A stretch of DNA of 64,000 nucleotides from a virus. The DNA is taken from positions 1-64,000 of the IMG/VR virus record IMGVR_UViG_3300006147_000378, one strand, 5' to 3'. Under the pieces are notes generated by a model. That model saw only the letters and a list, made by a program, of their open reading frames with translations. It did no database searches and was not told the origin of the DNA. This document shows, in pieces, positions 10,251 through 33,159 of the stretch. Position 1 is the stretch's first letter. Every line of letters starts with the position of its first letter. Position numbers and translations under genes: made by a program.

Positions 10251-10865
10251 ATGTCCGCAAATTTCGATGCAAGCAAAATGTATACATATCTCAAAGGGTA
10301 TGCAATGGGATTGGAGTGGCATGATACACTCGAAGCCCTTTCGTTTGCCAGGGTCGCACATAAAGACCAACGCCGCAAAAGCGGCGAACCGTATATTGTC
10401 CATCCTTTGACGGTTGCAAGCCATGCGGTGGCACTTGGAATTAAGGAGGATACAATCGTTGCGGCAGCAATTCTTCACGATGTTGTTGAGGATTGCGGTG
10501 TCAAAGCGGAGAATCTTCCTGTTTCTATGGACACGAGAGATGCGGTTCGCAGGCTCACGCATATCAAGGGCGAGCCTCTCGGCCCGTATTACCGTGAAAT
10601 TGGAGAGAACAGGGCCGCATCTATTGTAAAATTGTTGGATAGATGCGATAATGTATCTACCATGGCGGGCGTTTTTTCAGTAGAAAAGGTCGCACAGTAC
10701 ATCGGTGAAACGCGGCAGTTTGTTCTTCCGCTGTTGCGGGAGACAAAAGACAAGTGGCCAAATGACTCGAACGCACTCTTCGTGTTGAAATATCACATTA
10801 TGTCGGTTATTGATGGCCTTGAGGTCTGCCTGCAAGTAAAGAATGAGGTGGGTACAAATGCTTGA
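10251..10865 (+). CDS. HD-domain hydrolase of RelA/SpoT (p)ppGpp-hydrolase type (small alarmone hydrolase-like)
   Basis: HPLTVASHAVALG...AAILHDVVED HD motif. Confidence 0.7.
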   Translation: MSANFDASKMYTYLKGYAMGLEWHDTLEALSFARVAHKDQRRKSGEPYIVHPLTVASHAVALGIKEDTIVAAAILHDVVEDCGVKAENLPVSMDTRDAVRRLTHIKGEPLGPYYREIGENRAASIVKLLDRCDNVSTMAGVFSVEKVAQYIGETRQFVLPLLRETKDKWPNDSNALFVLKYHIMSVIDGLEVCLQVKNEVGTNA

Positions 10866-12063
10866 ACTCCAAGGAAAATTCGCAACCGCAAAAGTTTTCA
10901 CTGATGTGGTTGATAACGAATCCATTTCGCAGGTCATCAATCTCCTGAACCAGCCATATGCGGAAGGTGCCCATGTCCGCATGATGCCCGACATCCACGC
11001 TGGGGCAGGATGTACCATTGGCACTACCATGACTATTAAGGACAAGATTTGCCCGAACCTTGTGGGTGTGGACATCGGTTGTGGTATGGAGACAATCAAA
11101 ATCAAGGAAGACCACATCGAGCCGCAGAAACTGGATACCGTCATCCGTGATGGCATCCCTTCCGGGTTTTCTATCCGGGATAAGGCTCATCGGTTCTCCT
11201 CCGAGATTGACTTGGCCGAGCTGTATTGTGCCAAGCAGGTCAACATTGACCGTGCGCTGTGTAGCATTGGGACTTTGGGCGGCGGCAACCATTTCATCGA
11301 AGCGGACAAGGATGATGATGGTAACATCTATATCGTCGTCCACTCCGGCAGTCGGCATCTGGGGCTACAGATTGCCAACTACTATCAGGAGGCCGCATAC
11401 AAAGCACTCACCAGTTACAGCCAGGAGGAAATCGATGCTGTTATTACCCAACTCAAAGCAGAGGGGCGGCAAAAGGAAATCCAAAAGGCTTTGAAGCAGC
11501 TCAAGTCGAAGCATAGCCCGGTTCCGAAGCCGCTGGCCTATGTTGAGGGAGAGCTGTTTGACCAGTATATCCACGACATGAAGATTGCCCAGCAGTATGC
11601 TGAACTCAACCGCCGGGCAATGATGGATGTGATTGTGAAGGGCATGGGTTTCCATGTTGTCGAGCAGTTTACCACCATCCACAACTACATTGATGTGGAC
11701 AACATGATTCTTCGGAAGGGTGCTGTGTCCGCTCGGGCTGGGGAACGTCTGCTCATCCCCATCAACATGAGAGATGGTAGCCTGATTTGCACCGGCAAAG
11801 GGAACGAGGACTGGAACTGTTCTGCGCCCCATGGCGCTGGACGCCTGATGAGCCGGAGCGCTGCAAAGGAGACCTTCACAGTTTCCGAGTTTAAGAAGCA
11901 GATGGACGGTATCTATACCACATCTGTTGGCCGCAGCACTCTTGATGAGTGCCCGATGGCCTACAAGAACATGGCCGATATCGTGGACAACATCGACCCG
12001 ACGGCGGAGATTAACGCAATCATCAAGCCAATCTACAATTTCAAAGCAGGTGATGACGAATGA
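10858..12063 (+). CDS. rtcB: RNA 3'-phosphate/2',3'-cyclic phosphate ligase RtcB
   Basis: MPDIHAGAGCTIG and GGGNHFIE motifs. Confidence 0.85.
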   Translation: MLELQGKFATAKVFTDVVDNESISQVINLLNQPYAEGAHVRMMPDIHAGAGCTIGTTMTIKDKICPNLVGVDIGCGMETIKIKEDHIEPQKLDTVIRDGIPSGFSIRDKAHRFSSEIDLAELYCAKQVNIDRALCSIGTLGGGNHFIEADKDDDGNIYIVVHSGSRHLGLQIANYYQEAAYKALTSYSQEEIDAVITQLKAEGRQKEIQKALKQLKSKHSPVPKPLAYVEGELFDQYIHDMKIAQQYAELNRRAMMDVIVKGMGFHVVEQFTTIHNYIDVDNMILRKGAVSARAGERLLIPINMRDGSLICTGKGNEDWNCSAPHGAGRLMSRSAAKETFTVSEFKKQMDGIYTTSVGRSTLDECPMAYKNMADIVDNIDPTAEINAIIKPIYNFKAGDDE

Positions 12064-12168
12064 GTGGCTTCGACTGGCGGGGCTATTTAATGTTCTGTGC
12101 ATACATCTGTTTCCTTATTGGCTATACCATCTTCGTCGGCAAACAATTAACAAAGAGGTGGAAGTAAC

Positions 12169-13656
12169 ATGATTCACTACAATCCTTTGCTCTGCCTGGA
12201 TTTCTACAAGACGGCCCACGCAGAGCAGTATCCGCAGACTTTGACCAAGATGGTCTCCTACTATACACCACGCATGACTCGGCTTGGCGATACCGACAAG
12301 GTGACGATGTTCGGTCTCCAGGCATTCATCAAGGAATATCTCAGAGACTCATTTGACATCTGTTTCTTCCAAGAGGACTGGGAGGATGTTTTGGATGACT
12401 ACAAGCGTGTTCTCAACGCTACCATCAACACCGATGGCGTCGGTGTCCAGCGGCTGAAAGCTCTGCACGACCTCGGCTATCTGCCTTTGGAGATTAGGGC
12501 TGTGCCGGAAGGTGTTCGCACTAATATCAAAGTACCGCAAATCGAAATCTCCAATACCCACCCGGATTTCGTGTGGCTGGTCAACTCCATCGAGACCATG
12601 CTTTCCTGCACTATGTGGCACACCCAGGTTTCCGCTGAGGTGGGTTATCGCTACCGTCAAATCGTCAATGAGTACGCCGAGCGCACCTGTGATGACAGTG
12701 TGGTTCGGGCACGGCTCCTTGGCGATTTTTCTATGCGCGGTCAGGAGAGTGTAGAGAGCGCCACCAAGAGCTCCGCCGCTTTCTGCCTCAGTTTCCTGAA
12801 CACGGCCACCGTACCCGCTATTCTTTGGCTGGAGGATAACTACGACTGCGACTGTGTGCATGAGCCAGTTGCATATGGTGCTCTGTCCACCGAACACAGC
12901 GTTATGTGCTCCAACTTTGCCATTGATGGCGATGAGATTACCCATATTCGCCGTCTGCTGACTGAAATCTATCCACACCAGAGCTTCTCTATGGTCAGCG
13001 ACAGTTATGACTACTGGAATCTGGTGGACAATATCCTGCCGCAACTCAAGGATGAGATTCTGGCGCATGACGGGTGCATCTCCATCCGTGGCGACAGCGG
13101 TGACCCGGTTCAGGTTGTGACCGAGACCGTGTTCCGCCTGTGGGATATCTTTGGCGGCACTGTGAACAGTAAGGGGTTCAAGGTTTTGGACTCTCATGTC
13201 AAGGCGCTGTATGGCGACAGCATCACGCCGCAGCGTTGCCAGCAGGTCTATCAGATTCTGGAGGACAATGGGTTTGCTATCAACAACGTGGCGCTGGGTG
13301 TCGGTTCCTTCTCTATGCAATGTCTTGAGACAATGGACGCTGAACAGAAGTCCTATGCTCCATATACCCGTGATACCTTCGGTATCGCCGTGAAGGCAAC
13401 CTATGCAGAGGACGCTGACGGCAAACCCATCATGATTTTCAAGAACCCCAAAACCGACACCGGCCATTTTAAGAAATCCCAGCGTGGCTGTTGCCGTGTG
13501 GTCAAGGACGGCGACAACTACACATATGAGGATGGCCTGACTTGGGCCGAGGCTCAGGAGAACAATGAGCTTCAGACCGTGTTCAAGAATGGTGATATCA
13601 TCAAGAGGTTTACGCTGGATGAAGTGCGTCAGAACCTCCATGGAGGCCAGTTCTGA
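12169..13656 (+). CDS. nicotinamide phosphoribosyltransferase (NAMPT/NadV)-family protein; possibly a nicotinamide ADPR-transferase
   Basis: N-terminal LCLDFYKTAHAEQYP typical of NAMPT family; ~495 aa. Confidence 0.8.
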   Translation: MIHYNPLLCLDFYKTAHAEQYPQTLTKMVSYYTPRMTRLGDTDKVTMFGLQAFIKEYLRDSFDICFFQEDWEDVLDDYKRVLNATINTDGVGVQRLKALHDLGYLPLEIRAVPEGVRTNIKVPQIEISNTHPDFVWLVNSIETMLSCTMWHTQVSAEVGYRYRQIVNEYAERTCDDSVVRARLLGDFSMRGQESVESATKSSAAFCLSFLNTATVPAILWLEDNYDCDCVHEPVAYGALSTEHSVMCSNFAIDGDEITHIRRLLTEIYPHQSFSMVSDSYDYWNLVDNILPQLKDEILAHDGCISIRGDSGDPVQVVTETVFRLWDIFGGTVNSKGFKVLDSHVKALYGDSITPQRCQQVYQILEDNGFAINNVALGVGSFSMQCLETMDAEQKSYAPYTRDTFGIAVKATYAEDADGKPIMIFKNPKTDTGHFKKSQRGCCRVVKDGDNYTYEDGLTWAEAQENNELQTVFKNGDIIKRFTLDEVRQNLHGGQF

Positions 13657-14138
13657 TGGCGGTCAAAGTCATTGATGGCGACCTGTTCCAAACAACCGCT
13701 CCTACCATCTGCCACCAGGTAAATTGCCGTGGCAAGATGGGGAGCGGTGTTGCAAAACAAATCCGTGAGCTGTACCCATTGGCGTATGAGCGCTATCGGC
13801 TTGCTTACAATCGAGAGAAGAGCAACCCGAGTGGGTTGCTTGGCCGCATCCAGCACGTCTGCTGCAAGGACGAGCGAACCGAGACTGGTTTGAGAACCAT
13901 CGTCAATATGTTCGCTCAAGACAGGTACGGATATGATGGTCAATGCTACACGGACTATAAGGCTTTTGAATACTGCCTTGAAAAGCTCAAACACATTGTT
14001 CCTGCCGGTTCTGCGATTGCCATGCCATATAAGATTGGCTGCGGTCTCGCTGGTGGAGACTGGAATATCGTGTATGCTCTAATTGACCGAGTTCTCGGCC
14101 AGCAGTACACGGTGGAACTTTGGAGAAAAGAGGGATAG
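13656..14138 (+). CDS. macro-domain protein (ADP-ribose binding/processing)
   Basis: ICHQVNCRGKMGSGVAKQI glycine-rich macro motif. Confidence 0.7.
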   Translation: MAVKVIDGDLFQTTAPTICHQVNCRGKMGSGVAKQIRELYPLAYERYRLAYNREKSNPSGLLGRIQHVCCKDERTETGLRTIVNMFAQDRYGYDGQCYTDYKAFEYCLEKLKHIVPAGSAIAMPYKIGCGLAGGDWNIVYALIDRVLGQQYTVELWRKEG

Positions 14139-14140
14139 CT

Positions 14141-14881
14141 ATGCTGTATAACCCTGAGAAAATAAAAAACGACCTTGTCCAGTGGATTAGGGACTACTTC
14201 GCCGAGAACGGCCCAAGGTGCAGCGCTGTCGTGGGTATTTCTGGCGGCAAAGACAGCACCATCGTCGCCGCCTTGTGCGTCGAAGCGCTTGGCAAAGACC
14301 GGGTGGTCGGCGTCCTTATGCCGAACACAGAGCAAAATGACATCCTGGACAGCTACAAGCTGGTGGAACACCTTGGCATCGAGTACAAGTTTGTAAACAT
14401 CGGCGAGTCCGTCAATGCGCTGCTTCTTCGCCTGGAGGAGGTTGCGCAGGTAAGTGAGCAGACAAGGGTGAATCTCCCGGCCAGAATCCGCATGGCAACA
14501 CTGTATGCCATCGCCCAATCTCTGCCTAACGGCGGTCGTGTTGCCAATACCTGCAACAGGTCTGAGGATTTTGTAGGTTACTCCACCAAGTTTGGTGACA
14601 GTGCTGGCGACTTCAGCCCACTTGCCAATCTTATGGTAGATGAGGTAAAGCAGATTGGGCATGAGCTTTCACTGCCCGCCGACCTGGTTGATAAGATGCC
14701 GTCCGATGGCCTATGCGGTAAGACCGACGAGGACAATCTTGGTTTTACATACGCACAACTCGATACCTACATCAATTTTGGGTCATGCGGTGATGAGGAA
14801 ATTGACCGCAAAATTGCGGCCATGCACAAGTGCAACCTTCACAAGCTGGAGCCCATGCCCTCCTTCCGTGGTTGGAGATGA
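14141..14881 (+). CDS. nadE: NH3-dependent NAD+ synthetase NadE
   Basis: PP-loop SGGKDS plus NadE-specific blocks aligned by eye to B. subtilis NadE. Confidence 0.8.
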   Translation: MLYNPEKIKNDLVQWIRDYFAENGPRCSAVVGISGGKDSTIVAALCVEALGKDRVVGVLMPNTEQNDILDSYKLVEHLGIEYKFVNIGESVNALLLRLEEVAQVSEQTRVNLPARIRMATLYAIAQSLPNGGRVANTCNRSEDFVGYSTKFGDSAGDFSPLANLMVDEVKQIGHELSLPADLVDKMPSDGLCGKTDEDNLGFTYAQLDTYINFGSCGDEEIDRKIAAMHKCNLHKLEPMPSFRGWR

Positions 14882-14895: not shown

Positions 14896-16170
14896 ATGTT
14901 AAACGCTATCACAGCGATTACGGCCTTGCAAGGTGTATCCAGCACATTAAAAAAGCAAGAGGTTTTGCGGGAGTTCAGCGGTAACAAGGACTTCCGCAAA
15001 CTTTTGTATTACGCACTCAATCCCATGCTTACCTACAAGATTTCAGAGCAGACGCTGCGCCGTCCAGTGCGGTATGACCCAGCTATCACCTTGACTATGT
15101 GCGACATCTACGATATTTGCGAAACGCTGTCAAAGCGGAAGGCATTGGATGATGCAACAGTCTATCAGGTGTGTGCTTTTGTGCAGGCGTGCCCACCAGA
15201 GATTACGGAGTTTTACACGAAGCTGCTCAGCAAAACCCTGCGGCTGGGTGTTACTGCAAAGACGGTCAACAAAGTCATTCCGGGACTGATACCTGAATGG
15301 GAAGTCCAACAGGCGTATCCGATTGAAAAGCATCCGTTCCAGAATGGTACATGGTTTACCTTGACACAGAAGCTCAACGGTGTTCGGGCCACCTTCTACA
15401 AAGGAAAGCTAATTGCAAGAAGCGGCCTGCCCTATGAAGGTTTGGAACATATCACGAGCGTGCTTGAGCGAGCCGAGTTTGACGGTCTTGTTTTTGATGG
15501 TGAGCTCACACTTCTGGATAAGGGAGACCTGAGCGACAACGAGGCTTTCCGAAAGGCGACTGGCATCATCAACTCGGACGACGCCGATAAAACCGGCATT
15601 TGTTACACGATTTTTGATGTCATTCGTGAGGAGGACTTCAACAACGGAGAAGTAGGAATGACATATAGTGCACGCCGAACGGCAATGGAAACTATCACCG
15701 TTCTTCTCTCCGGCACCGAGTGTATCGACGTTCTTCCTGTTCTTTACATGGGTACTGACCAGTCCAAGATAGGTGAATTGCTGAAACGGATGGTCAGTGA
15801 GGACAAAGAGGGTCTGATTGTGAACCTGGATGTCCCGTATAAGCGTAAGCGGCACAGCGGCATCCTAAAGGTCAAGGAGTTCTACACAATGGACTTGCCC
15901 ATCATCGAGTGCGAGGAAGGCAGTGGCCGACTGGTTGGCACTCTTGGGGCCTTTGTTCTCAACTACAAGGGGAACGAGGTTCGTGTCGGCTCTGGATTCA
16001 CAGACAAGCAACGAGATGCGTATTGGCGGCGCAGAGAGGAACTTGCTGGGGTTCTCTGCGAGGTCAAGTATAAAGAAATCTCCAGCGACAAGAACACCGG
16101 GGCAGAAAGTCTGCAATTCCCGGTGTTTCTTTCATTACGCACAGATAAGGAAGATGTAAGCTATGGCTAA
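14896..16170 (+). CDS. ATP-dependent DNA ligase (T7-like), motif I variant KLNGVR
   Basis: motifs I KLNGVR, III FDGELT, IV EGLIVN, V ILKVKEF. Confidence 0.75.
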   Translation: MLNAITAITALQGVSSTLKKQEVLREFSGNKDFRKLLYYALNPMLTYKISEQTLRRPVRYDPAITLTMCDIYDICETLSKRKALDDATVYQVCAFVQACPPEITEFYTKLLSKTLRLGVTAKTVNKVIPGLIPEWEVQQAYPIEKHPFQNGTWFTLTQKLNGVRATFYKGKLIARSGLPYEGLEHITSVLERAEFDGLVFDGELTLLDKGDLSDNEAFRKATGIINSDDADKTGICYTIFDVIREEDFNNGEVGMTYSARRTAMETITVLLSGTECIDVLPVLYMGTDQSKIGELLKRMVSEDKEGLIVNLDVPYKRKRHSGILKVKEFYTMDLPIIECEEGSGRLVGTLGAFVLNYKGNEVRVGSGFTDKQRDAYWRRREELAGVLCEVKYKEISSDKNTGAESLQFPVFLSLRTDKEDVSYG

Positions 16171-18104: not shown

Positions 18105-19187
18105 ATGCGCCAGTTAGCAAGTATCAGGAAGATTTCTGATATCCGCCCCATCCCCGGCGCCGACCGCATTGTGGTTGCGCAGGTTGATGGATGGGAGTGT
18201 GTTGTTCAAAAGGACGAGTTCCATGTGGGCGACACCATCGTCTATGTCGAGGTGGACTCTATTGTCCCAGAGCGCCCAGAGTTCGAGTTCCTGCGTGACC
18301 GTAAGTTCCGTGTGCGCACCATCAAGCTGCGTGGGCAGGTCAGTCAGGGCCTGGTTTTGCCGATGTCTATCCTGCCGGATGGCATCTATCCGCTTGGCAG
18401 CGATGTGACGAAGGTTCTCGGAATTGAGAAGTATGACCCCGAAGCACAGCAGGAGGCCATGCTTACCCAGAAGCAGCCGAACAAGCCCAAGAGCAAGTTT
18501 GCCCAGTTCATGATGCGGTTCAAGTGGTATCGCAAGCTGTTCATGAAGTCGAAGCGCAAGGGCGGGTTCCCAGAGTGGATTGTCAAGACGGACGAGACCC
18601 GTATCCAGAACCTGACCACCCTCTTTGATATTGAGCGGAGGAACGGCACCAAGTTCTCCGTCACTGAGAAGGTGGACGGTCAGTCTGCGACCTACTATCT
18701 CAGAAAGGTCTCCCGGCGCAAGTATGAGTTCGGGGTTTGCAGTCGAAACATTCACCTGGGTACTCCTGACAACAGCTCCTATTGGACTGTGGCAAAGAAG
18801 TACGACATCGAGAACGTGCTGAAGAAGCTCATCGGTGATTATGAAACTATCGTTTTACAAGGTGAAATCTGTGGTAACCAGATTCAGGGGAACAAGTATC
18901 ACATCAGTGGTTATGAGCTTTTCGCCTTCAACCTGATTTACCCAGGGCACAAGTGCGGCACTGCCGAAATCAAAGACCTGCTCTCCCCGTTTGGAATCAA
19001 AACGGTTCCAATCCTTGAGGAAGGCAAGGTTTTACCGGACACTATCGCAGATTTGGTAGAGTATTCCAAAGGTAAATCGATAGTTCGGAAAGAACAGAAG
19101 CGGGAGGGTGTTGTGATGCGCAACGTTCAGAAGAACATCAGCTTCAAGGTCATCAACCCAGACTTCCTGCTCGCAGAAAAGGACTGA
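18105..19187 (+). CDS. ATP-dependent RNA ligase-family nucleotidyltransferase (motif I KVDGQS) with N-terminal OB-like domain
   Basis: KVDG motif I; family assignment RNA vs DNA ligase is inference from context. Confidence 0.6.
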   Translation: MRQLASIRKISDIRPIPGADRIVVAQVDGWECVVQKDEFHVGDTIVYVEVDSIVPERPEFEFLRDRKFRVRTIKLRGQVSQGLVLPMSILPDGIYPLGSDVTKVLGIEKYDPEAQQEAMLTQKQPNKPKSKFAQFMMRFKWYRKLFMKSKRKGGFPEWIVKTDETRIQNLTTLFDIERRNGTKFSVTEKVDGQSATYYLRKVSRRKYEFGVCSRNIHLGTPDNSSYWTVAKKYDIENVLKKLIGDYETIVLQGEICGNQIQGNKYHISGYELFAFNLIYPGHKCGTAEIKDLLSPFGIKTVPILEEGKVLPDTIADLVEYSKGKSIVRKEQKREGVVMRNVQKNISFKVINPDFLLAEKD

Positions 19188-19192: not shown

Positions 19193-19660
19193 ATGCCGAG
19201 ACCCATCAACAACTTGGTCGGTTGGCGTTTTGGTCGGCTGACCATCATTGACCGGGTTGAGAACCCGGAGAACAGACAATCCAAATGGCTGTGCCGCTGT
19301 GACTGCGGTAACACCTGCGAAGTGTTCGGAACCAACCTGAAATCCGGCAGCAAGGTTTCCTGCGGAAAATGTGAAAAGGAAGATATGAACAAGGAGCAGA
19401 TGCGGCAGACTTCGGTTAGCCTTGACCGACTCAGGAAGGACGCCGCAGACCCATATCAGAACCTTGCCAATGCAATCGTGGCCGTTGCCGCAGATGACTA
19501 CCGCTTGGCTATGCGGGAAAGCAACGGTCAGCTCATGGATAGCTTGGAAAAGTTTTTCCATTCTGGCTGGTATAAGACGCTGACCAGTTTGAACCCGGAT
19601 ACTCTGCTGGCTAATTTGCGGAGAGAACACAACGGCTGTTTGGAAGCCGTGTATACCTAA
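19193..19660 (+). CDS. hypothetical protein (N-terminal GWRFGRLTI motif, Cys cluster)
   Basis: ORF. Confidence 0.45.
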   Translation: MPRPINNLVGWRFGRLTIIDRVENPENRQSKWLCRCDCGNTCEVFGTNLKSGSKVSCGKCEKEDMNKEQMRQTSVSLDRLRKDAADPYQNLANAIVAVAADDYRLAMRESNGQLMDSLEKFFHSGWYKTLTSLNPDTLLANLRREHNGCLEAVYT

Positions 19661-21698: not shown

Positions 21699-22445
21699 AT
21701 GAGTAACAAGAAGGATTCTCTCGGCGACCGCATGAAGAGGTATGAGGGTGTGTCGCGCAACTTCCTTGCCCGCAGAGTGCCAGTCATTATCCGGCTCGAT
21801 GGAAAGGCATTCCACACTTTCACAAAGGGTATGAGGAAACCGTTTGACCGCATCCTGATGAACGCCATGCAGGACACAATGCAGTATCTTTGCAAGAATA
21901 TCCAGGGCTGTGTGTTTGGATACACACAATCTGATGAGATTACCCTGGTTCTTATCGACTACACCACTATTAAGACAGACGCATGGTTCGGCTACAATGT
22001 CCAGAAGATGACCAGTATTGCCGCATCAATGGCTACACTCGCATTCAACTCCTGTTTTATCGACGGTGCCAATGCAGCACTCCAGTATAGGGCTTTCTCC
22101 ATCCCGGAGGATGAAGTTTGCAACTGCTTGATTTGGCGTCAACAGGATGCCACAAGAAACAGTATTGAGGCTGTTGGTCAGGCGAACTTCAGCCACAAAG
22201 AATTGCAGGGGAAAAGCTGCAACGATATCCAGGAAATGCTGTGGAGTAAGCGCAGCATCAACTGGAATGACTTCCCTGTGGATTGCAAGCGTGGTGCGTG
22301 CTGCTATCGGAAGTGTAGTGAGGTTCAGATGCAAGACCCACGGGATACCAGTAAAACTATCACGGTCGCTCGGCGTGGTTGGGTCATTGACAGGGAACCT
22401 CCTATCTTTACACAAGATAGAAACTACATTGAGGGGTGGCTGTAA
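21699..22445 (+). CDS. tRNA-His guanylyltransferase (Thg1)-like 3'-5' RNA polymerase
   Basis: VIIRLDGKAFHTF, YTQSDEITLV, IWRQQD blocks match the Thg1 family. Confidence 0.8.
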   Translation: MSNKKDSLGDRMKRYEGVSRNFLARRVPVIIRLDGKAFHTFTKGMRKPFDRILMNAMQDTMQYLCKNIQGCVFGYTQSDEITLVLIDYTTIKTDAWFGYNVQKMTSIAASMATLAFNSCFIDGANAALQYRAFSIPEDEVCNCLIWRQQDATRNSIEAVGQANFSHKELQGKSCNDIQEMLWSKRSINWNDFPVDCKRGACCYRKCSEVQMQDPRDTSKTITVARRGWVIDREPPIFTQDRNYIEGWL

Positions 22446-22993
22446 TGCAGTTTTACATTTCTGATTGGCACTATGGCCATAAGAACTGCTTGGCGTTTGA
22501 CAACCGACCATTCACATCTATTGAGCAGATGAATCAAGCGTTGATTGAGCGCTGGAACAGCGTGGTTAAACCGGGTGACACAGTGTATGTGCTTGGCGAT
22601 ATGTTCTGGTGTAACGCCGATGTGGCAATCCAAGTTCTGGACTCGCTGGCGGGTCAGATTTTTCTGGTTAAAGGGAACCACGACCGCTGCCATACCAAGA
22701 AGCTCACGGATAAGTTCGTAAAAGTTGCGGACTACATGGAGATTGAGGATGCGGGACGCAACGTAGTTCTTTGCCACTATCCAATCCCCTGTTTCAAGAA
22801 TCACTTCTATGGTTGGTATCACCTGTACGGCCACGTCCACAACTCGTTTGAGTTCAACATGATGGAACATGACAAGTTTCTGATGTCGGAACTCTATACA
22901 CGGCCATGTCAGATGTTCAATGTTGGTGCCATGATGCCCTGGATGGACTACACTCCGAGAACGCTTGATGAGATTATCGCCGCGTGTAAATAA
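22445..22993 (+). CDS. calcineurin-like metallophosphoesterase (possible RNA 2',3'-phosphatase of the repair set)
   Basis: DWHYGH, GDMF, GNHD motifs; start overlaps Thg1 stop. Confidence 0.7.
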   Translation: MQFYISDWHYGHKNCLAFDNRPFTSIEQMNQALIERWNSVVKPGDTVYVLGDMFWCNADVAIQVLDSLAGQIFLVKGNHDRCHTKKLTDKFVKVADYMEIEDAGRNVVLCHYPIPCFKNHFYGWYHLYGHVHNSFEFNMMEHDKFLMSELYTRPCQMFNVGAMMPWMDYTPRTLDEIIAACK

Positions 22994-23104: not shown

Positions 23105-24268
23105 ATGATATATCTTGATAATGCCGCAACCACAAGGATTGCGCCGGAGGTGCTTGAGGCGATGATGCCATATCTCACCACTGAGTATGGGAACGCAGGC
23201 ACTCTATACAGTTTTGGCCGTTCTGCCGCCGATGCTATACAGAAAGCTCGGGCGCAGGTGGCAACGCTATTTGGCTGTACGCCAGACCATGTGATTTTTA
23301 CATCTGGCGGCAGCGAGGGTAACAATACAGTTTTTAAGGGGCTTCGGCACAAGTTCGCAGAGCAAGGCAAGAAGCACCTGATTGTTTCAGCGATTGAACA
23401 CGATTCCGTCTTGCGGGCCGCAGAAAGCCTGACCAAAGACGGATTTTATATTACATATATCAAGCCCGGTTCTGACGGACGCATCTCCCCTAAAGCGGTG
23501 GAAGCAGCGATTCACGAGGATACCGGGCTTGTTTCTGTTATGTTCGTCAACAACGAGATTGGTGCCGTCAACGACATCAACGAGATAGGCCGTATTTGCA
23601 GGCAGCATGAGGTCATGTTTCACACTGACTGTGTGCAGGCGGCTGGTCAGTACGAGTTGTCAGTCCATAAGAACGACGCTGATTTTGCGACCGTATCCTC
23701 CCACAAGATTCATGGCCCTAAAGGGGTCGGTGCTTTGTATGTGAGAGAAAAGGATTTCCTTCCGCTGGTCTGTGGCGGAGCGGAGCAAGAGTTTGGTCTG
23801 CGTGGCGGTACAGAGAATGTGCCTGGGATTGTAGGCTTCGGTGCAGCAGCAAGTATCGCCGTAGAGAGAATGCGCGATGACCTAATTAGTGTATCCACGT
23901 TGAAACAGCACTTCTATATGGCGCTGTTAGACGCATTTAGGCATCTTGACCTTCCAACGGACTGCATTCGTGTAAACGGGCACCCAGTTATTGAGCCGGG
24001 CAAGACATTGAATTTGCGGTTTGACAGCGTAGATGCACAAACACTCTTGCTTATGCTGGATGCGAATGGTGTCTGTGTTTCCGCTGGGTCTGCTTGCCGC
24101 AGCCATGAAGCCGAGCCGAGCCATGTGCTGACAGCTATGGGACTAACTCCAAATGAAGCGAGGAGTTCTGTTCGGGTTTCCTTCTCAAAGTACAATACAA
24201 CTGATGAGGTGGTGTGTGCTGCACAGAGTTTTGCCTCGTGCGTTGCCACTGCCTTGGAACTCATATAA
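23105..24268 (+). CDS. cysteine desulfurase (NifS/IscS family, PLP-dependent)
   Basis: IYLDNAATT start, SSHKIHGPKG PLP-lysine region. Confidence 0.8.
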   Translation: MIYLDNAATTRIAPEVLEAMMPYLTTEYGNAGTLYSFGRSAADAIQKARAQVATLFGCTPDHVIFTSGGSEGNNTVFKGLRHKFAEQGKKHLIVSAIEHDSVLRAAESLTKDGFYITYIKPGSDGRISPKAVEAAIHEDTGLVSVMFVNNEIGAVNDINEIGRICRQHEVMFHTDCVQAAGQYELSVHKNDADFATVSSHKIHGPKGVGALYVREKDFLPLVCGGAEQEFGLRGGTENVPGIVGFGAAASIAVERMRDDLISVSTLKQHFYMALLDAFRHLDLPTDCIRVNGHPVIEPGKTLNLRFDSVDAQTLLLMLDANGVCVSAGSACRSHEAEPSHVLTAMGLTPNEARSSVRVSFSKYNTTDEVVCAAQSFASCVATALELI

Positions 24269-25296: not shown

Positions 25297-25802
25297 GGAT
25301 TGAGCTATTTGACGCCTATGGCGTCCTACATATCGGTCAGTCCGAGTTCTTGTTCGATGTTGAAGACCTTGCTTTGATAGAGGGCCGCAGTTGGTATCAG
25401 GACAAGGATGGTTACTTGGTGAGCAGTTACTTCTTCAACGGCAGACGACGGTTCGTCCGCTTCCACAGGATTGTGATACAAGCCAAGGAAGGTCAGTTTG
25501 TAGACCACATCAACAAGAACCGGGCCGACAACAGAAAACAAAATTTGCGATGCTGCAACCGGGCTGAGAATGACAGAAACCGTAGGCCGTATTCAACTAA
25601 CACGTCTGGAGTGTCCGGCGTATATTTCGACAAGCAGCGTGGTCGGTGGACTGCGAGCATCTCATATAACAAAAAGCGGCTGTTCATTGGGAGATTCGCT
25701 AACAAGGAAGACGCTATTCGAGCCAGACTTGAAAAAGAGGTCGAGCTGTTCAAAGAGTTTGCCCCACAGCGGGCGTTAATGGAGGAATTAGCTTATGGAT
25801 AG
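25278..25802 (+). CDS. HNH homing endonuclease with AP2 DNA-binding domain
   Basis: HINKNRADNRKQNLR HNH motif; AP2-like SGVSGVYFDKQRGRWTASI. Confidence 0.7.
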   Translation: MVDTSLRIELFDAYGVLHIGQSEFLFDVEDLALIEGRSWYQDKDGYLVSSYFFNGRRRFVRFHRIVIQAKEGQFVDHINKNRADNRKQNLRCCNRAENDRNRRPYSTNTSGVSGVYFDKQRGRWTASISYNKKRLFIGRFANKEDAIRARLEKEVELFKEFAPQRALMEELAYG

Positions 25803-26217
25803 GGCAATCAAGACATTCAAAGGGAACAATTTCTTTCTGAGCAACTTTTATGTTGCTCCTGTCGTTTATCAAGGAATCAGGTTTGAGAACAATGAAGCGG
25901 CATTCCAGGCCGCAAAGTGTCCAGAGCGTATGCGTGATTTCTGTGGCCTGAATCCGCAAGCCGCAAAGCGCCTTGGGCGCCGTGTTGAACTGCGACCAGA
26001 CTGGGAGTCCGTCAAGTATGACGTAATGTACCAGGTCTGTAAAGCCAAGTTTACACAGAACCCAAACCTACTCGAAAGACTCCTTGCCACAGGCGATGCG
26101 GAGCTTGTAGAAGGCAACACCTGGGGTGACCAAGTATGGGGTGTCTGCAAGGGTGTCGGCGAGAATCATCTCGGCAAAACCCTGATGCGTATCAGGGCCG
26201 AGCTGGGAAATGGGTGA
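25795..26217 (+). CDS. NADAR (YbiA-like) domain protein, candidate ADP-ribose N-glycosidase
   Basis: FFLSNFY...EAAFQAAK...WGDQVWG NADAR signature. Confidence 0.7.
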   Translation: MDRAIKTFKGNNFFLSNFYVAPVVYQGIRFENNEAAFQAAKCPERMRDFCGLNPQAAKRLGRRVELRPDWESVKYDVMYQVCKAKFTQNPNLLERLLATGDAELVEGNTWGDQVWGVCKGVGENHLGKTLMRIRAELGNG

Positions 26218-26559: not shown

Positions 26560-26698
26560 GGTAGCGTAGCTTAATTGGTTAGAGCTGCGGGCGCAAAGCG
26601 TCGAGGAGTGACTCTCCTTCTTGGAAGGTACAGCCAAGACCCGTGTAAGTGGAGTGTTTCGTCAACATCCCGTGTAGGTTCGAGTCCTACCGCTACCA
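26560..26698 (+). tRNA. tRNA-like gene with ~64-nt internal insertion (intact acceptor/D-arm and T-arm/acceptor ends; anticodon unresolved)
   Basis: 5' GGTAGCG-TA-GCTT...GAGC and 3' GTAGG-TTCGAGT-CCTAC-CGCTACC-A; internal 8-nt direct repeat CCCGTGTA. Confidence 0.4.
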
Positions 26699-27791: not shown

Positions 27792-27814
27792 ACGAAACAT
27801 TGGAGATGAACAAC

Positions 27815-28042
27815 ATGAGTCTTTCCAATATTGATGAGCTCTGGAGGCCAGAGCCAGGTGGCGACCTCGCCCTTATGCCATGTCCATTCTGCGGTGGAAC
27901 AACAGTTGTGTATTTTCACTACAAGCATCGTGTTGGAGATAGGTATGGAGTTCTCTGCTGTGACTGTATGGCGAACATTGACCCAGGCTGGGCGCAGCAA
28001 AAGTCTGCTGTGCAGGCTCTTTGGAATCATAGGGTAACTTAA
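27815..28042 (+). CDS. Lar-family restriction alleviation protein
   Basis: LMPCPFCGG motif characteristic of Lar family. Confidence 0.65.
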   Translation: MSLSNIDELWRPEPGGDLALMPCPFCGGTTVVYFHYKHRVGDRYGVLCCDCMANIDPGWAQQKSAVQALWNHRVT

Positions 28043-29061: not shown

Positions 29062-29077
29062 CTTCGGTGGTGAAAAA

Positions 29078-29266
29078 ATGGAGCGCAATAAATGGAGCGG
29101 ATGTAGCTGGTGCAAAGAATATGGCAGCATACCACTTAGGGGGTTTACGATACATGGATGCACAAGTATAACCGTGAGGTACTGCCCAGTCTGCGGAATG
29201 CCACTTACAAAAGATGCGTGGGCAGAACTTGAACACAAGGTGGGCGATATCATATGTTCCGAGTAA
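29078..29266 (+). CDS. small zinc-ribbon protein
   Basis: CSWC...CPVCG; preceded by TTCGGTGGTGAA motif. Confidence 0.45.
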   Translation: MERNKWSGCSWCKEYGSIPLRGFTIHGCTSITVRYCPVCGMPLTKDAWAELEHKVGDIICSE

Positions 29267-29616
29267 TTATTGCTGGTGGTCGGGATTTTAATGACTACGC
29301 TTTACTGTCCGATACGATGGACTGTCTTCTGCTCAATATCAAGGAAGACATAACGGTAGTGTGTGGACAGGCTCGTGGGGCCGATACGCTTGGAGAGCAG
29401 TATGCCAAAGAGCATGGTTATGCTGTAAGCTACTTTCCGGCTGATTGGGATAGGTATGGTAAATCCGCAGGCTATATCCGCAATACAGAGATGGCCAAAA
29501 ACGCTGATGCCCTGGTCGCATTTTGGAATGGTCAAAGTCGTGGTACAATGCACATGATTGAGATTGCCAAAAGACAGGGTTTGAGAGTACGCATAAAGCG
29601 GTACGATAGAAAGTGA
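29254..29616 (+). CDS. SLOG/DUF2493-like (DprA/LOG-related) nucleotide-binding domain protein
   Basis: IIAGGRDF...VVCGQARGAD...AFWNGQSRGT pattern. Confidence 0.55.
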   Translation: MFRVIIAGGRDFNDYALLSDTMDCLLLNIKEDITVVCGQARGADTLGEQYAKEHGYAVSYFPADWDRYGKSAGYIRNTEMAKNADALVAFWNGQSRGTMHMIEIAKRQGLRVRIKRYDRK

Positions 29617-29948: not shown

Positions 29949-29982
29949 TAAAAATTCGGAACTACGCTCTCCGAGTCCAGCA

Positions 29983-30010
29983 GCCCGCTAACGCGGGCAA
30001 GACTTTTTTT
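29983..30010 (+). terminator. Rho-independent terminator (GCCCGC-TAAC-GCGGGC + spacer + T7)
   Basis: 6-bp GC stem and T7 run. Confidence 0.55.
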
Positions 30011-30154
30011 CTCACTCGCATTGCTGAGGCAATGCTTCGTGAGTGCTGGGCTCGGGAGCGACGCTATGCACATCGGCGGCTCACTCAACCTACAGCCGCT
30101 TCGATGCGGAAGGCGACTGGCCTGTTTGTATAAAAATTTCTGGAGGTGTATAAT

Positions 30155-30747: not shown

Positions 30748-30782
30748 AACTGGGATTTGATTAAAAGTATGGAGGCGAGAGC

Positions 30783-31805
30783 ATGACAATCGAACAAATC
30801 AAAGAGATGGTGAACGGCCCCGAGTACGATTTTCTCAGAACCAATCCCCATCTCCAGAACAGAATCATTTTCTTGACGCTGGGCGGCAGTTACTCCTATG
30901 GAACCAACGTGGAAACCTCCGACGTTGATGTCCGAGGATGTGCCCTGAACCGTCCATCCGATTTGCTCGGCCTCACAAACTTCGAGCAGGTCGTAAACAC
31001 ACAGACCGACACTACGGTTTATGCGTTCAACAAGCTCATCACGCTACTTCTCAACTGCAACCCAAACACAATCGAGATGTTGGGCTGCAAACCGGAGCAC
31101 TATTTCCTGCTTACGGATGTTGGCCAGGAAATGATTGAAAACAGGAAACTGTTTATGTCCCGGCGTGCTGTTCATTCCTTTGGTGGCTATGCCTCTCAAC
31201 AACTCCGGCGGCTTGAGAATGCCCTGGCCAGGGATAAGATGGCACAGGCTATGAAGGAGGAACACATCCGGCGCTCCATGGAAGGTGCTGTTAAGTCTTT
31301 CTCCGACCGATACACCTCTTTTGACAAGGGTAGCTTCGTCCTTTATACGGCGGAAAGCCAGCGTGAAGACCTCGACCGTGAGATTTTTGCGGACATCCAC
31401 CTCGACAAATTCCCAGTTCGGGAGTTCAACAGCATGATGAACGACCTGACCAATGTGCTGGGAAACTACGAGAAGTTGAACCACAGAAACCATAAGAAGG
31501 ATGATAACCATCTCAACAAGCACGCCATGCACCTTATCCGTCTGTATCTGATGTGCCTGGACATCCTGGAGAAGGGCGATATCATCACCTACCGGGAAGC
31601 CGACCACGACCTGCTTATGAGCATCCGCCGTGGCGACTATCAGCGTGAAGACGGAACGTACATGGACGAGTTTTTCGAGATGGTCAACGACTTCGAGCGG
31701 AGGCTGGACTATGCAAAGAACAACACGAGCCTCCCTGACAACCCCGATATGAAACGAGTCGAGGAGTTCGTCATGGAGGTAAACAGGAGGGCTCTGAATG
31801 AGTAG
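30783..31805 (+). CDS. pol-beta superfamily nucleotidyltransferase-domain protein
   Basis: LTLGGSYSYGTNVETSDVDVRG (GS...DxD) motif. Confidence 0.65.
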   Translation: MTIEQIKEMVNGPEYDFLRTNPHLQNRIIFLTLGGSYSYGTNVETSDVDVRGCALNRPSDLLGLTNFEQVVNTQTDTTVYAFNKLITLLLNCNPNTIEMLGCKPEHYFLLTDVGQEMIENRKLFMSRRAVHSFGGYASQQLRRLENALARDKMAQAMKEEHIRRSMEGAVKSFSDRYTSFDKGSFVLYTAESQREDLDREIFADIHLDKFPVREFNSMMNDLTNVLGNYEKLNHRNHKKDDNHLNKHAMHLIRLYLMCLDILEKGDIITYREADHDLLMSIRRGDYQREDGTYMDEFFEMVNDFERRLDYAKNNTSLPDNPDMKRVEEFVMEVNRRALNE

Positions 31806-33159
31806 AATCACAATTCCAGATGGGGCCAGGGAAATCATTGACACGCTGACCTCTGCTGGTTTTGAAGCGTATGTGGTAGGTGGCTGTGTCCGCGACAGCC
31901 TACTGGGCCTGGAGCCTCACGATTGGGACATTTGCACATCTGCATTACCATCAGATGTTATGTCGATTTTTTCAGAAAAGAGAATTATTGGCACGGGAAT
32001 GAAGCATGGCACTGTTACAATTCTTACAGATAGTGGCGGATACGAGGTCACGACTTTCCGCATTGACGGTGATTATTCAGACCATCGGCGACCAGACAGT
32101 GTGACCTTCACGACCAGCCTGGATGAGGATTTGTCACGCAGAGACTTTACCATCAACGCTATGGCCTACAACGATGCGGTCGGCCTAATTGACCCGTTCG
32201 GCGGTATATATTCTTTATGCAACCGAGAAATCTCATGCGTTGGCAGTCCTGCTCACAGATTTGAGGAAGATGCACTTCGCATCATGCGGGCTCTCCGTTT
32301 TGCATCCACATACGGGTTCTGTATCGAAGATAGAACGGCAAAAGCGATTCATCTGTTCGCTCCAAGCCTGAATAATATTGCTGTGGAACGTATCCAGTCT
32401 GAGCTATGTAAGCTCTTGCTGGGTGACGGAGCGCTTAACATCCTCTTGGATTACAGTGACGTGATTGCCACCATTATTCCAGAGATAGAACCTTGTATCG
32501 GGTTCGACCAAAACAACCGTTACCATGAGTACACAGTGTATGACCACATTGCTTATGCGGTTGCAAACTACAAGGGTAAAGACATCTCTGTCAAAGTTGC
32601 TCTTCTTTTGCACGATATTGGGAAACCTCTATGCTACACGGAGGATATAAACGGAGGCCATTTCCATGGACACGCTGTTCCAAGCCGTGATATTGCGGAA
32701 GCCGTTATGAATCGTCTGCGTTTTGACAACAGGACTAAAGCCGAGGTTTTAGAGCTGGTCTTGTACCATGACGCAGTGATTGAGCCGACGCCAAAGACCG
32801 TGAGACGGTGGCTGAATAAGATTGGCAAACATCGGTTTTCACAGTTGCTTAAAGTCCGAATGGCGGATATCCTGGCTCACTCCAAGAGAACGCAGCAGTC
32901 ACGCATCGAACGCTGTAATGCACTCAAGTCCCTTATCGCAGAGGTTCTGGAAGCAGAACAATGTTTCTCACTGAAAGACCTTGCCATCCACGGCAATGAT
33001 GTGCTGTCGCTCGGTGTTCCAGAAGGGAAAATTGTAGGGGATATTCTCCGGCATATCCTGGACATGGTAATCAACGGTGATGTCCCAAATGAAATCGAAG
33101 AGCAGATAGATATCGCCATGCAGTATTTGACGGAGCATCAACATGAGTGGAAGGAATGA
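31798..33159 (+). CDS. cca: tRNA nucleotidyltransferase (CCA-adding enzyme) with HD domain
   Basis: GGCVRDSLLG + DWD head motif; LLHDIGK HD motif. Confidence 0.8.
   Translation: MSRITIPDGAREIIDTLTSAGFEAYVVGGCVRDSLLGLEPHDWDICTSALPSDVMSIFSEKRIIGTGMKHGTVTILTDSGGYEVTTFRIDGDYSDHRRPDSVTFTTSLDEDLSRRDFTINAMAYNDAVGLIDPFGGIYSLCNREISCVGSPAHRFEEDALRIMRALRFASTYGFCIEDRTAKAIHLFAPSLNNIAVERIQSELCKLLLGDGALNILLDYSDVIATIIPEIEPCIGFDQNNRYHEYTVYDHIAYAVANYKGKDISVKVALLLHDIGKPLCYTEDINGGHFHGHAVPSRDIAEAVMNRLRFDNRTKAEVLELVLYHDAVIEPTPKTVRRWLNKIGKHRFSQLLKVRMADILAHSKRTQQSRIERCNALKSLIAEVLEAEQCFSLKDLAIHGNDVLSLGVPEGKIVGDILRHILDMVINGDVPNEIEEQIDIAMQYLTEHQHEWKE

Follow-up and report, generated by a model that had tools for sequence, protein, structure and literature searches.

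Does the 64,000-nucleotide window analysed here (positions 1 to 64,000 of IMG/VR record IMGVR_UViG_3300006147_000378) encode a connected set of enzymes for mending broken RNA ends, and what would such a set do for its phage? The source is an uncultivated, large phage (about 100-140 kb) of gut Firmicutes. A first-pass annotation had named seven genes as a near-complete RNA repair toolkit and read them as a means of resealing and rebuilding tRNA ends. Six of the seven are real, lie where they had been placed and have intact catalytic motifs, and for these six enzymes the general reading holds. The window probably encodes a multi-enzyme kit that mends broken RNA ends, most plausibly those of tRNAs; its part in counter-defence is one that we infer.

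RtcB, a 3'-phosphate/5'-OH RNA ligase of 401 residues (10858..12063, plus strand), was confirmed by matches to PF01139 (E=7e-65) and phrog_1075 (E=3e-144). Aligned with P. horikoshii RtcB, the protein keeps the nucleophile motif PHGAGR and its metal ligands, which lie in GVDIGCG, GGGNHF and VHSGSR; the sequence also has an HN motif (TIHNY). Relatives in IMG/VR hold orthologues that are 83-89% identical. RtcB is housed in an NAD+-salvage cluster, apart from the other repair genes, which counts against reading the genes as one kit. The 8 nt at its start are shared with the end of a stand-alone Rel/SpoT-type HD hydrolase of 204 residues (10251..10865, plus strand; HD_4 E=1.6e-11), which resembles small alarmone hydrolases (SAHs). 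This protein contains an HDVVED motif and matched Rel/SpoT hydrolase domains (6s2t, E=4e-15) as well as MESH1 and SAH structures (2e-8 to 5e-4). Certain SAHs act on the CCA ends of tRNAs, taking off pyrophosphate (10.1101/2021.04.30.441581), and the hydrolase is a candidate for an additional tRNA 3'-end healing enzyme. Among the fetched IMG/VR RtcB loci it occurs in L089 only; it is also present in L001-L004, near-identical metagenome contigs of the same phage. As a separate observation, the window carries a NARP1-like NAD+ cluster.

The second ligase, annotated at first as an RNA-ligase-family KVDG enzyme (18105..19187, plus strand, 360 residues), was placed by profile searches among the Rnl5 RNA ligases and not the DNA ligases. 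It is an ATP-dependent nick-sealing enzyme of the DraRnl/NgrRnl type, with an N-terminal OB-like domain followed by a nucleotidyltransferase domain (PF21189 and PF09414). It matches Naegleria NgrRnl (5cot) over its full length (E=1.8e-46), its KVDG, LQGE, REGVV and SFK motifs align with those of NgrRnl, and TIGR02306 (DRB0094) scores 164.7 bits (cutoff 151). A separate gene (14896-16170) encodes an ATP-dependent DNA ligase. Ligases of the DraRnl type are able to join an RNA strand with a 3'-OH end when the template is DNA. We know of no established physiological substrate for Rnl5 ligases or for bacterial Thg1-like proteins, which counts against the repair reading.

The Thg1-like 3'-5' nucleotidyl transferase (21699..22445, plus strand, 248 residues; PF04446 E=4e-27) proved to be of the bacterial TLP type: residues 6-246 match B. 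thuringiensis TLP (BtTLP, 4kgk) at E=6e-65, whereas matches to eukaryotic Thg1 are far weaker (~1e-7). Its carboxylate motifs RLDG and QSDE are conserved. The overlap behind the proposed coupling to a calcineurin-like metallophosphoesterase (22445..22993, plus strand, 182 residues) is genuine: it measures 1 nt, with stop and start sharing TAATG. Matches to Metallophos_2 (E=2.6e-7), Metallophos and phrog_547 (E=1e-45), together with all five metallophosphoesterase motifs (DWH, GD, GNHD, CHYP and GHVH), establish the family of this second protein; its closest solved relative, Aquifex aq_1665 (1xm7, E=8e-13), is itself of no known function, which counts against the repair reading. Downstream lies a NifS/IscS-type cysteine desulfurase (23105..24268, plus strand; Aminotran_5 E=1e-77) with SSHK as its PLP-lysine motif and SAGSAC at the active site; the NifS, DndA and IscS models match at 1e-108 to 1e-91, every one of them under its equivalog cutoff.

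The predicted pol-beta nucleotidyltransferase (30783..31805, plus strand, 340 residues) belongs to the RlaP family (PF10127 E=1.6e-18; phrog_388 E=2e-54) and has the GGS...DVDV motif. RlaP adds one or two NMPs to damaged RNA 3' ends, after which repaired tRNA regains aminoacylation (PMC12776372). The gene overlaps the next by 8 nt (ATGAGTAG), as had been noted. This neighbour encodes a class II CCA-adding tRNA nucleotidyltransferase of 453 residues (31798..33159, plus strand), identified by its PolyA_pol, PolyA_pol_RNAbd and tRNA_NucTran2_2 domains, by the equivalog NF009814 (302.6 bits, cutoff 290) and by matches to 6ibp and 1miv (E~1e-61), with GGCVRD..DWD, RRDFTINAM and EDALR conserved. The HD domain attributed to its C terminus is present, with the motifs H..HD..H..HD. 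Because CCA is encoded in all six canonical phage tRNA genes, this enzyme is not needed for their maturation, which favours a role in repair.

The seventh gene, a P-loop kinase (54426..54974, plus strand), falls outside the repair set. It had been called Pnk-like, but its only profile matches are AAA_28 (E=3e-9) and a 'thymidylate kinase' PHROG (phrog_2107, E=2.6e-13). None of the PDB sequences matched below E=0.06, the value reached by the best, a deoxyguanosine kinase. The top 50 Foldseek matches to its AlphaFold (AF2) model (pLDDT 84.8) were thymidylate, deoxynucleoside and adenylate kinases and one shikimate kinase, and the surrounding genes are ThyX, a dNMP kinase, NT5C, NrdD, dUTPase and a putative NrdG (by position only). 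Matches, fold and dNTP-metabolism neighbours give no support to the polynucleotide kinase identity; the evidence points to a probable nucleotide or nucleoside kinase. The 64-kb window and the modules of relatives yielded no polynucleotide kinase, 2H phosphoesterase or Tpt1, which counts against the repair reading. The "full repertoire" first proposed is therefore six end-repair enzymes and an ATP-ligase branch that has no 5'-kinase.

Within a single clade, all six repair genes are shared by at least 16 IMG/VR contigs. The usual arrangement, seen in about 30-35 related loci of that database, runs from TLP through phosphoesterase, cysteine desulfurase and RlaP to CCA within ~6 kb; an alternative order is Rnl5, one gene, RlaP, CCA and TLP. 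RlaP adjoins the CCA gene in 36 related loci, and RtcB and Rnl5 are 4-8 kb apart in 23. Among the 35 related loci with the phosphoesterase, most have it ~0.6 kb 3' of the TLP gene, and two (L012 and L051) ~6-10 kb away; of the 37 with the cysteine desulfurase, ~30 place it between the phosphoesterase gene and that for RlaP. The genes first described as spread are indeed dispersed in this phage and form one compact module in relatives: the window is a dispersed form of their ~6-kb block. This conserved neighbourhood appears to tie the repair genes together in function. Each repair gene is preceded by a GGAGG-type ribosome-binding site, and a promoter and terminator scan returned sites no more numerous than in shuffled sequence. 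Two further features were recorded: a conserved 139-nt tRNA-like RNA (26560-26698) with a 48-nt structured insert in the anticodon loop and no encoded CCA, and a MazF/PemK-like toxin gene (37197-37655), conserved ~9-10 kb 3' of TLP in 30 related loci.

From homology and intact motifs, activities can be predicted for RtcB, Rnl5, RlaP, the CCA enzyme, TLP and the phosphoesterase, and together they suggest the following scheme. RtcB would join 2',3'-cyclic-phosphate or 3'-phosphate ends straight to 5'-OH ends. Metal-independent nucleases such as PrrC, RloC, MazF and HEPN enzymes leave such ends. The 3'-OH on which Rnl5 and the transferases depend may be exposed by the metallophosphoesterase and by the CCA enzyme's HD domain, which may strip 2',3'-cyclic or 3'-phosphates. 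RlaP would return one or two nucleotides where a 3' end has been trimmed, the CCA-adding enzyme would put back the acceptor CCA, and the Thg1-like protein would refill a shortened 5' acceptor strand with the 3' strand as template. Rnl5 would seal 3'-OH/5'-phosphate nicks in duplex, for example in the anticodon stem. Since no Pnk is present, the ATP-ligase branch could not by itself heal 5'-OH breaks; these would go via RtcB, and Rnl5 would serve only breaks already bearing a 5'-phosphate. In line with the published framework, the kit may sustain translation when tRNAs come under attack from abortive-infection nucleases of the host or from toxins that modify tRNA, and the literature on phage RNA repair suggests anticodon nucleases as what it would counter. 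As the phage has its own MazF-like RNase, some repair could target self-inflicted cuts, a point that weighs against the counter-defence reading.

It is unlikely, in our judgement, that the enzymes instead serve the phage's own RNA metabolism, maturing or quality-controlling its tRNAs and the tRNA-like RNA, or rejoining RNAs cut by the MazF-like endoribonuclease, with RtcB as a processing or splicing ligase. The six tRNA genes and the insert-bearing tRNA-like RNA of the window would suit such a role, as would the conservation of the MazF/PemK-like gene and, in a second phage clade, further tRNA-like genes that are long (115-121 nt) and precede RtcB by 4-5 kb. However, the six canonical tRNAs, with their encoded CCA, look ordinary save for a long extra arm in tRNA-Lys, and neither a bulge-helix-bulge motif nor a splicing endonuclease was found. 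Moreover, the tRNA-like RNA without its insert was not recognised as a tRNA by ARAGORN in any register, and its known range is two lineages only, against a far wider one for the enzyme set.

We also think it improbable that each of these auxiliary genes has a role of its own, unrelated to the others, and that accessory-gene build-up in a large phage brought them together. Under this explanation Rnl5 and the phosphoesterase might act on RNA-primed or nicked DNA in replication and repair, the CCA enzyme might raise tRNA supply and RtcB might belong to a stress response. The genes are scattered over 22 kb among others for NAD+ salvage, a DNA ligase, an anti-DarT-like macro domain, NADAR, a homing endonuclease and unknown products; the overlap of the HD hydrolase with RtcB is not conserved; and the cultured phages PMBT8 and Bcp1 do not have TLP and phosphoesterase near one another. 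A weak match of the phosphoesterase to PdeM, a ligase-associated DNA-damage nuclease, and the action of DraRnl-type ligases on DNA templates point the same way. Against it stand the tight blocks of relatives in both orders, the translational overlap of RlaP and CCA in the window itself, and the fact that RlaP and RNA ligases are associated in bacteria and phages alike (PMC12776372, PMC7824862). A joint RNA repair kit remains the more probable reading.

Among known systems, T4 Pnk and Rnl1 are a phage-borne means to heal and seal tRNA breaks left by an anticodon nuclease of the host, in this case PrrC acting on tRNA-Lys, and T4 likewise has an RlaP homologue, NrdC.11. T4 combines a bifunctional kinase-phosphatase with its Rnl1 ligase; in the window phage, which lacks Pnk, 5'-OH breaks would be sealed by RtcB in a single step. 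To our knowledge, T4 lacks the end-rebuilding polymerases TLP and CCA. Six cultured Bacillus phages of the Bastillevirinae (Bcp1, BM15, Hobo, Kioshi, CM1 and JBP901) each have RtcB (58-60% identical), TLP (45-47%) and an RlaP-like transferase (27-31%), but these genes are 20-100 kb apart, TLP has no adjoining phosphoesterase, and by genus count none of 343 Rnl5 matches is from a Bacillus phage. For RlaP, Clostridioides phage AR1086-1 (130 kb) is the nearest relative in culture (48.5%). This large clostridial phage also has RtcB (49%), NrdD/NrdG and a DnaE-type polymerase; it differs in an annotated KptA (RNA 2'-phosphotransferase), and no TLP, Rnl5, CCA or phosphoesterase homologue was detectable in the 41 kb examined. 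In bacterial RtcB-RlaP-RtcA operons (Pseudomonas; PMC12776372), RlaP and an RNA ligase similarly restore over-trimmed tRNA; here RlaP is instead coupled to the CCA-adding enzyme, and the RtcA cyclase and RtcR regulator are absent.

In components and logic the kit matches the RNA-repair suites described in jumbo phages (Iyer, Anantharaman, Krishnan, Burroughs & Aravind 2021, PMC7824862; framework of Burroughs & Aravind 2016). Those suites combine RlaP and a CCA-adding enzyme with RtcB, with ATP-dependent RNA ligases or with both, and sporadically include Thg1, with calcineurin-like or HD phosphoesterases to heal ends and phage tRNA genes alongside. Unlike them, the present suite belongs to a non-jumbo phage (contigs up to ~140 kb) of gut Firmicutes, has an Rnl5/DraRnl-type ATP ligase where the main phage families in that survey are Rnl1 and Rnl2, lacks polynucleotide kinase and HAD phosphatase, and includes a cysteine desulfurase in its module. 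The initial description of the Thg1-like gene, and of RtcB beside an ATP ligase, as uncommon was overstated: RtcB is present in 700 phage records and TLP in 164, IMG/VR holds more than 598 TLP relatives, and suites of RtcB, ATP ligase, RlaP, CCA and Thg1 in one phage have already been published (PMC7824862). Because a counter-defence kit of such enzymes is known from other large phages, the window would represent a rich but ordinary example.

The first-pass annotation of this stretch listed seven repair enzymes and was largely right, since six of them are encoded where it placed them; the exception is a supposed polynucleotide kinase (Pnk). The six are RtcB, an Rnl5-type RNA ligase, a Thg1-like protein (TLP), a phosphoesterase, RlaP and a CCA-adding enzyme. 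Their source is an abundant, uncultivated phage whose host group is probably gut Firmicutes: a megablast search of 50,697 phage records returned no cultured relative of the 22-kb region, the DnaE-type polymerase is at most 46% identical to its nearest cultured relatives (Thomasclavelia, Clostridioides and Bacillus phages), the best matches of RtcB and the TLP are unannotated contigs from human faeces, and the identical Rnl5 protein sequence is indexed in 88 blocks of a metagenome collection. The contigs shown with identical Rnl5 share the gene order of the window. Of the genes between about 4.6 and 61 kb, nearly all lie on the + strand. A promoter and terminator scan, made to probe the 'early region' label and the operon structure, gave site counts equal to those of shuffled sequence and so bears on neither. 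Alongside six tRNA genes, the window encodes a DnaE-type DNA polymerase, DnaB helicase, primase, ERF recombinase and PD-(D/E)XK nuclease. Its dNTP-metabolism genes are ThyX, dNMP kinase, NT5C, NrdD and dUTPase, together with a putative NrdG that was named from its position alone.

RtcB (10858-12063) matches PF01139 (E=7e-65) and phrog_1075 (E=3e-144, residues 1-400). The PF01139 match falls in two stretches and reaches profile position 425 of 426, indicating a full-length fold. Alignment to Pyrococcus horikoshii RtcB (PhoRtcB; 1uc2 and 4dwr) showed that the metal-ligand motifs DIGCG, GNHF and VHSGSR and the nucleophile motif HGAGR are kept. In PhoRtcB the metal-binding Asp, Cys and His residues and the guanylylated His are D95, C98, H203, H234, H329 and H404; the equivalent of H329 lies outside the aligned blocks, and an HN motif (TIHNY) is present in the phage sequence.

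The second ligase (18105-19187), annotated as a KVDG enzyme of the RNA ligase family, could be placed among the Rnl5 (DraRnl/NgrRnl) RNA ligases. It contains an N-terminal OB-like domain (PF21189, residues 4-87) and an adenylyltransferase domain (PF09414, residues 183-350), and lacks a C-terminal OB domain. The alignment to the Naegleria enzyme 5cot is collinear (E=1.8e-46). Where NgrRnl reads KLDG, LQGE, REGLV and FSFK at motifs I, III, IV and V, the phage enzyme has KVDG, LQGE, REGVV and ISFK. The enzyme does not group with DNA ligases, given the full-length alignment with NgrRnl and an above-cutoff score for the TIGR02306 equivalog; a separate ATP-dependent DNA ligase is encoded at 14896-16170. 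Directly after Rnl5, here and in most related loci that carry it, lies a gene for a zinc-ribbon protein (19193-19660, 155 aa) whose N-terminus matches part of an HNH-endonuclease PHROG, and which may be a partner of the ligase.

The Thg1-like gene (21699-22445) encodes a bacterial-type TLP with a Thg1 palm domain (PF04446, E=4e-27). It groups with TLPs, matching that of Bacillus thuringiensis (BtTLP, 4kgk) at E=6e-65 versus 6e-8 to 3e-6 for human and yeast Thg1. Both metal-binding carboxylate motifs are kept, IIRLDG and TQSDEI aligning with VRIDG and HQSDEI of BtTLP. Eukaryotic Thg1, the tRNA-His guanylyltransferase, carries the motif HINNLYN, at the position of which the phage protein reads RQQDATRNSI. 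Several related phages have two TLP paralogues (the locus pairs L055/L060, L059/L066, L047/L070 and L049/L071, each pair on one IMG/VR contig), the second following the 54426-54974 homologue at a distance of about 4.2 kb. The window has one TLP, and a serine recombinase (56387-57901) sits at the position corresponding to the second.

The start of the calcineurin-like phosphoesterase gene (22445-22993) overlaps the TLP stop codon (TAATG). All five metallophosphoesterase motifs are present (DWH, LGD, GNHD, CHYP and GHVH), Pfam scores exceed the gathering cutoffs, and the closest structure is 1xm7. On the basis of its conserved neighbourhood, the enzyme is a candidate for acting on RNA 2',3'-cyclic or 3'-phosphate ends in the manner of the Pnkp phosphatase. 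The adjacency of TLP and phosphoesterase genes is absent from the cultured phages PMBT8 and Bcp1. Downstream lies an intact NifS/IscS-type cysteine desulfurase (23105-24268) with SSHK and SAGSAC motifs, found between the phosphoesterase and RlaP in about 30 related phage contigs; it may be linked to the thiolation of tRNA, to Fe-S supply or to phosphorothioation of DNA.

The pol-beta nucleotidyltransferase (30783-31805) is RlaP, scoring 67.7 bits against PF10127 (cutoff 23). The sequence contains LGGSYSYG...SDVDV, corresponding to the hG[GS] motif and DxD carboxylates of a Pol-beta core, and phrog_388 spans residues 23-339, in keeping with such a core and a C-terminal helical domain. Its gene overlaps by 8 nt that of a CCA-adding enzyme with an HD domain (31798-33159), and the two are translationally coupled. 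The CCA-adding enzyme scores above cutoff for the NF009814 equivalog and conserves the class II head motifs A, B and D (GGCVRDSLLGLEPHDWD, RRDFTINAM and EEDALR) in comparison with 6ibp. Its HD domain (PF01966, E=5e-8, residues 250-331) looks intact, with the motifs YDH, LLHDIGKP, HGH and YHD and the His and Asp metal ligands present.

The seventh enzyme, a P-loop protein at 54426-54974 annotated as Pnk-like, has no specific resemblance to polynucleotide kinases. Neither Pfam nor PHROGs nor NCBIfam yielded a Pnk-type family at E<=0.01; the matches were to AAA_28 and to a PHROG labelled thymidylate kinase. Searching the PDB by sequence and by profile turned up no Pnk. For a profile of 27 homologues the best PDB sequence match was deoxyguanosine kinase (E=0.06), and the top 50 Foldseek hits of an AlphaFold model (pLDDT 84.8) were thymidylate, deoxynucleoside and adenylate kinases and one shikimate kinase. 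The gene is part of a dNTP-metabolism block, with the putative nrdG on one side and dUTPase on the other, and the nearest repair gene is 21 kb away. It was not found to be associated with genes for RNA ligases or phosphatases, the second TLP downstream in relatives being a weak link. Protein families, PDB searches of both kinds, the AlphaFold model with its Foldseek matches and gene context thus led us to reject a Pnk identity. Among the credible ORFs of the window this gene alone has a classical Walker A motif, and no kinase was found among the ORFs inside the repair modules of relatives. The 64-kb window has no recognisable 5'-kinase.

To compare gene order, the proteins of the window were searched against two sets of 80 IMG/VR loci, one surrounding relatives of the TLP and the other relatives of RtcB. 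About 30-35 contigs of one clade share the order TLP, two small ORFs, phosphoesterase, cysteine desulfurase, RlaP and CCA-adding enzyme within ∼6 kb, with proteins 60-85% identical. These contigs also carry Rnl5, at ∼9-10 kb upstream, and a MazF-like gene at ∼9-10 kb downstream. A second arrangement in relatives reads Rnl5, one gene, RlaP, CCA-adding enzyme, TLP. RtcB is located 4-8 kb upstream of Rnl5 in 23 loci, and all six enzymes occur on at least 16 contigs. Only in this phage are the desulfurase and RlaP separated by a gap, of about 6.5 kb, which holds an HNH-AP2 endonuclease, NADAR, Lar, a SLOG protein and small ORFs. Because relatives hold the same genes compactly, the window is a dispersed version of the conserved module. 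The chief new evidence that the genes share a pathway is this conserved neighbourhood.

The enzyme chemistry of the pathway we propose is drawn from characterised relatives, and its biological role is a second level of inference. RtcB would join 2',3'-cyclic-phosphate or 3'-phosphate ends to 5'-OH ends in a single step, and Rnl5 would close nicks with 3'-OH and 5'-phosphate ends in duplex RNA. The lack of a kinase makes it probable that the two ligases split the work by end chemistry and are not a T4-like heal-and-seal pair. The TLP would fill in 5'-shortened acceptor strands by templated 3'-5' synthesis, the CCA-adding enzyme would restore the acceptor end, and the phosphoesterase and the HD domain of the CCA-adding enzyme are candidates for removing 3'-terminal phosphates. 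RlaP would place one or two nucleotides on trimmed 3' ends and so restore aminoacylation of over-damaged tRNA, activities described for RlaP (PMC12776372). The kit as a whole may sustain translation while host nucleases or toxins attack tRNA, a framework already set out for phage RNA repair (PMC7824862, section 3.4.9). Repair fits better than routine tRNA maturation, since all six canonical tRNA genes of the phage encode CCA and since RlaP is translationally coupled to the CCA-adding enzyme.

The same genes could instead be unrelated auxiliary functions that happen to be carried together, a reading against which the conserved block argues. Alternatively, the kit could serve the phage's own RNAs: its tRNAs, a tRNA-like RNA at 26560-26698, or RNAs cut by its own MazF-like RNase. 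That RNase, a MazF/PemK-like endoribonuclease (37197-37655), keeps its place, ∼9-10 kb on the downstream side of the TLP, in 30 related loci; a 107-aa ORF upstream of it (36804-37127) had no family match. Cuts of the MazF type yield ends that are sealed by RtcB.

The tRNA-like RNA (+ strand, 139 nt) scores 43.8 bits against the Rfam tRNA model and is missed by plain ARAGORN. The acceptor stem and the D and T arms are normal, and the anticodon stem reads GCGGG/CCCGU. In place of the 7-nt anticodon loop are 48 nt that form a mini-hairpin and two hairpins; there is a 29-nt extra arm, and CCA is not encoded. A homologue in another phage contig (L109:6739-6877) is 75% identical and folds alike; compensatory changes, found in its acceptor stem and both hairpins, support the fold. 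Standard pairs make up 98% of the paired cells and four pairs are changed on both sides, although the covariation evidence is thin because just two lineages were found. IMG/VR and JGI metagenome scans for more copies returned only these lineages and two unrelated matches. The RNA is not a canonical intron-containing tRNA: an ARAGORN call of tRNA-Met with a 59-nt intron depends on a weak G-U-rich stem, inspection found no bulge-helix-bulge geometry, and all eight simple excision products fail ARAGORN. Homology to the tRNA-Leu(UAA) genes of relatives was ruled out, and no other Rfam family, known ribozymes included, was matched. A second family of long tRNA-like RNAs (115-121 nt; L140:5364-5478, L149:4838-4953, L153:4151-4269 and L162:5239-5359 in IMG/VR relatives) belongs to a different phage clade, whose RtcB is ∼52% identical, and is encoded 4-5 kb upstream of that RtcB. 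In its members the acceptor stem and the D and T arms are normal and an internal hairpin is conserved; a convincing anticodon arm was sought and none could be assigned. Separately, the tRNA-Lys(UUU) of the window (103-192, 90 nt) has a 17-nt hairpin-forming variable region or extra arm, which is unusual for a class I tRNA, and a comparable 93-nt tRNA occurs in an IMG/VR relative (L089:3549-3641). tRNA-Lys is the classical target of PrrC.

We consider it very unlikely that the repair enzymes are tied to the phage's own unusual RNAs, with the tRNA-like RNA a processed substrate or decoy needing RtcB, the CCA-adding enzyme or the TLP, and the desulfurase re-thiolating repaired tRNAs. If it were so, a bacteriophage would possess a tRNA-splicing-like pathway that depends on proteins, or a tRNA-mimic one.

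RtcB lies within a cluster of NAD+ genes (8870-14881) that resembles the phage NAD+ reconstitution pathway NARP1. The cluster comprises a nicotinamidase-like gene (8870-9421), the PRPP-synthetase/Adps-like (9425-10231) and NAMPT/Namat-like (12169-13656) genes that flank RtcB, a DarG-like macro domain (13656-14138) and NAD synthase (NadE, 14141-14881); throughout the clade RtcB sits between the two NARP1-like genes. Its start is overlapped by 8 nt by the stop of a stand-alone Rel/SpoT-type HD hydrolase (10251-10865, 204 aa), similar to small alarmone hydrolases, with matches to HD_4 (E=1.6e-11) and Rel/SpoT hydrolase domains (E=4e-15), an LHDVVED motif and no synthetase domain. Small alarmone hydrolases can strip the pyrophosphate added to tRNA CCA ends by toxSAS/CapRel-type enzymes (10.1101/2021.04.30.441581), and this protein could act on either alarmones or such CCA-end pyrophosphate. 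Apart from the window and metagenome contigs nearly identical to it, the gene turned up in a single one of the IMG/VR RtcB loci, L089, and coupling of the HD gene to RtcB as a conserved unit was therefore rejected.

Other conflict-related genes are NADAR (25795-26217), Lar restriction alleviation (27800-28042), a YAcAr/SLOG protein (29254-29616), DUF3990 (7386-7874, matching the PADLOC candidate PDC-M13B) and a ThiF/E1-like protein (2658-3425). Just upstream of the tRNA array is a retron-type reverse transcriptase (4642-5799) that matches PADLOC RT_II-A (E=1.6e-45) and the NCBIfam retron St85 family below cutoff (174 bits).

The interpretation of these genes as a tRNA repair kit is thus reasonable but already known, and its kinase and its claims of rarity need correcting. 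A survey of jumbo phages had described RtcB and ATP-dependent ligases together in a single phage, in any combination, with RlaP tracking the ligases, and also CCA-adding enzymes, sporadic Thg1 and occasional calcineurin-like or HD phosphatases (PMC7824862). The combination of RtcB with an ATP ligase is therefore less uncommon than was claimed. The rarity of the Thg1-like gene was likewise overstated, for the TLP is matched in 164 records of a phage collection (RtcB, 700; Rnl5, 343; RlaP, 301) and has more than 598 relatives in IMG/VR. Like the window, the cultured Bacillus phages Bcp1, BM15, Hobo, Kioshi, CM1 and JBP901 (Bastillevirinae) combine RtcB, TLP and RlaP, and Clostridioides phage AR1086-1 has RlaP and RtcB, plus an annotated KptA. 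By genus counts the Rnl5 matches are mostly in Pseudomonas and Aeromonas phages and in no Bacillus phage, whereas here Rnl5 occurs in what is probably a Firmicutes phage. Conceptually the repair set adds little to published surveys of phage RNA repair; what is particular is the presence of six enzymes in one non-jumbo genome, the compact conserved module and the intact desulfurase embedded in it.

Looking forward, the compact module of TLP, phosphoesterase, desulfurase, RlaP and CCA-adding enzyme offers a natural test bed for bacterial TLPs and RlaP. Should the proposed function be correct, abundant gut Firmicutes phages of an entire clade spend about 6 kb on mending tRNA ends, and tRNA-targeting defences, such as anticodon nucleases and CCA-modifying toxins, would then be a major selective pressure in the gut.
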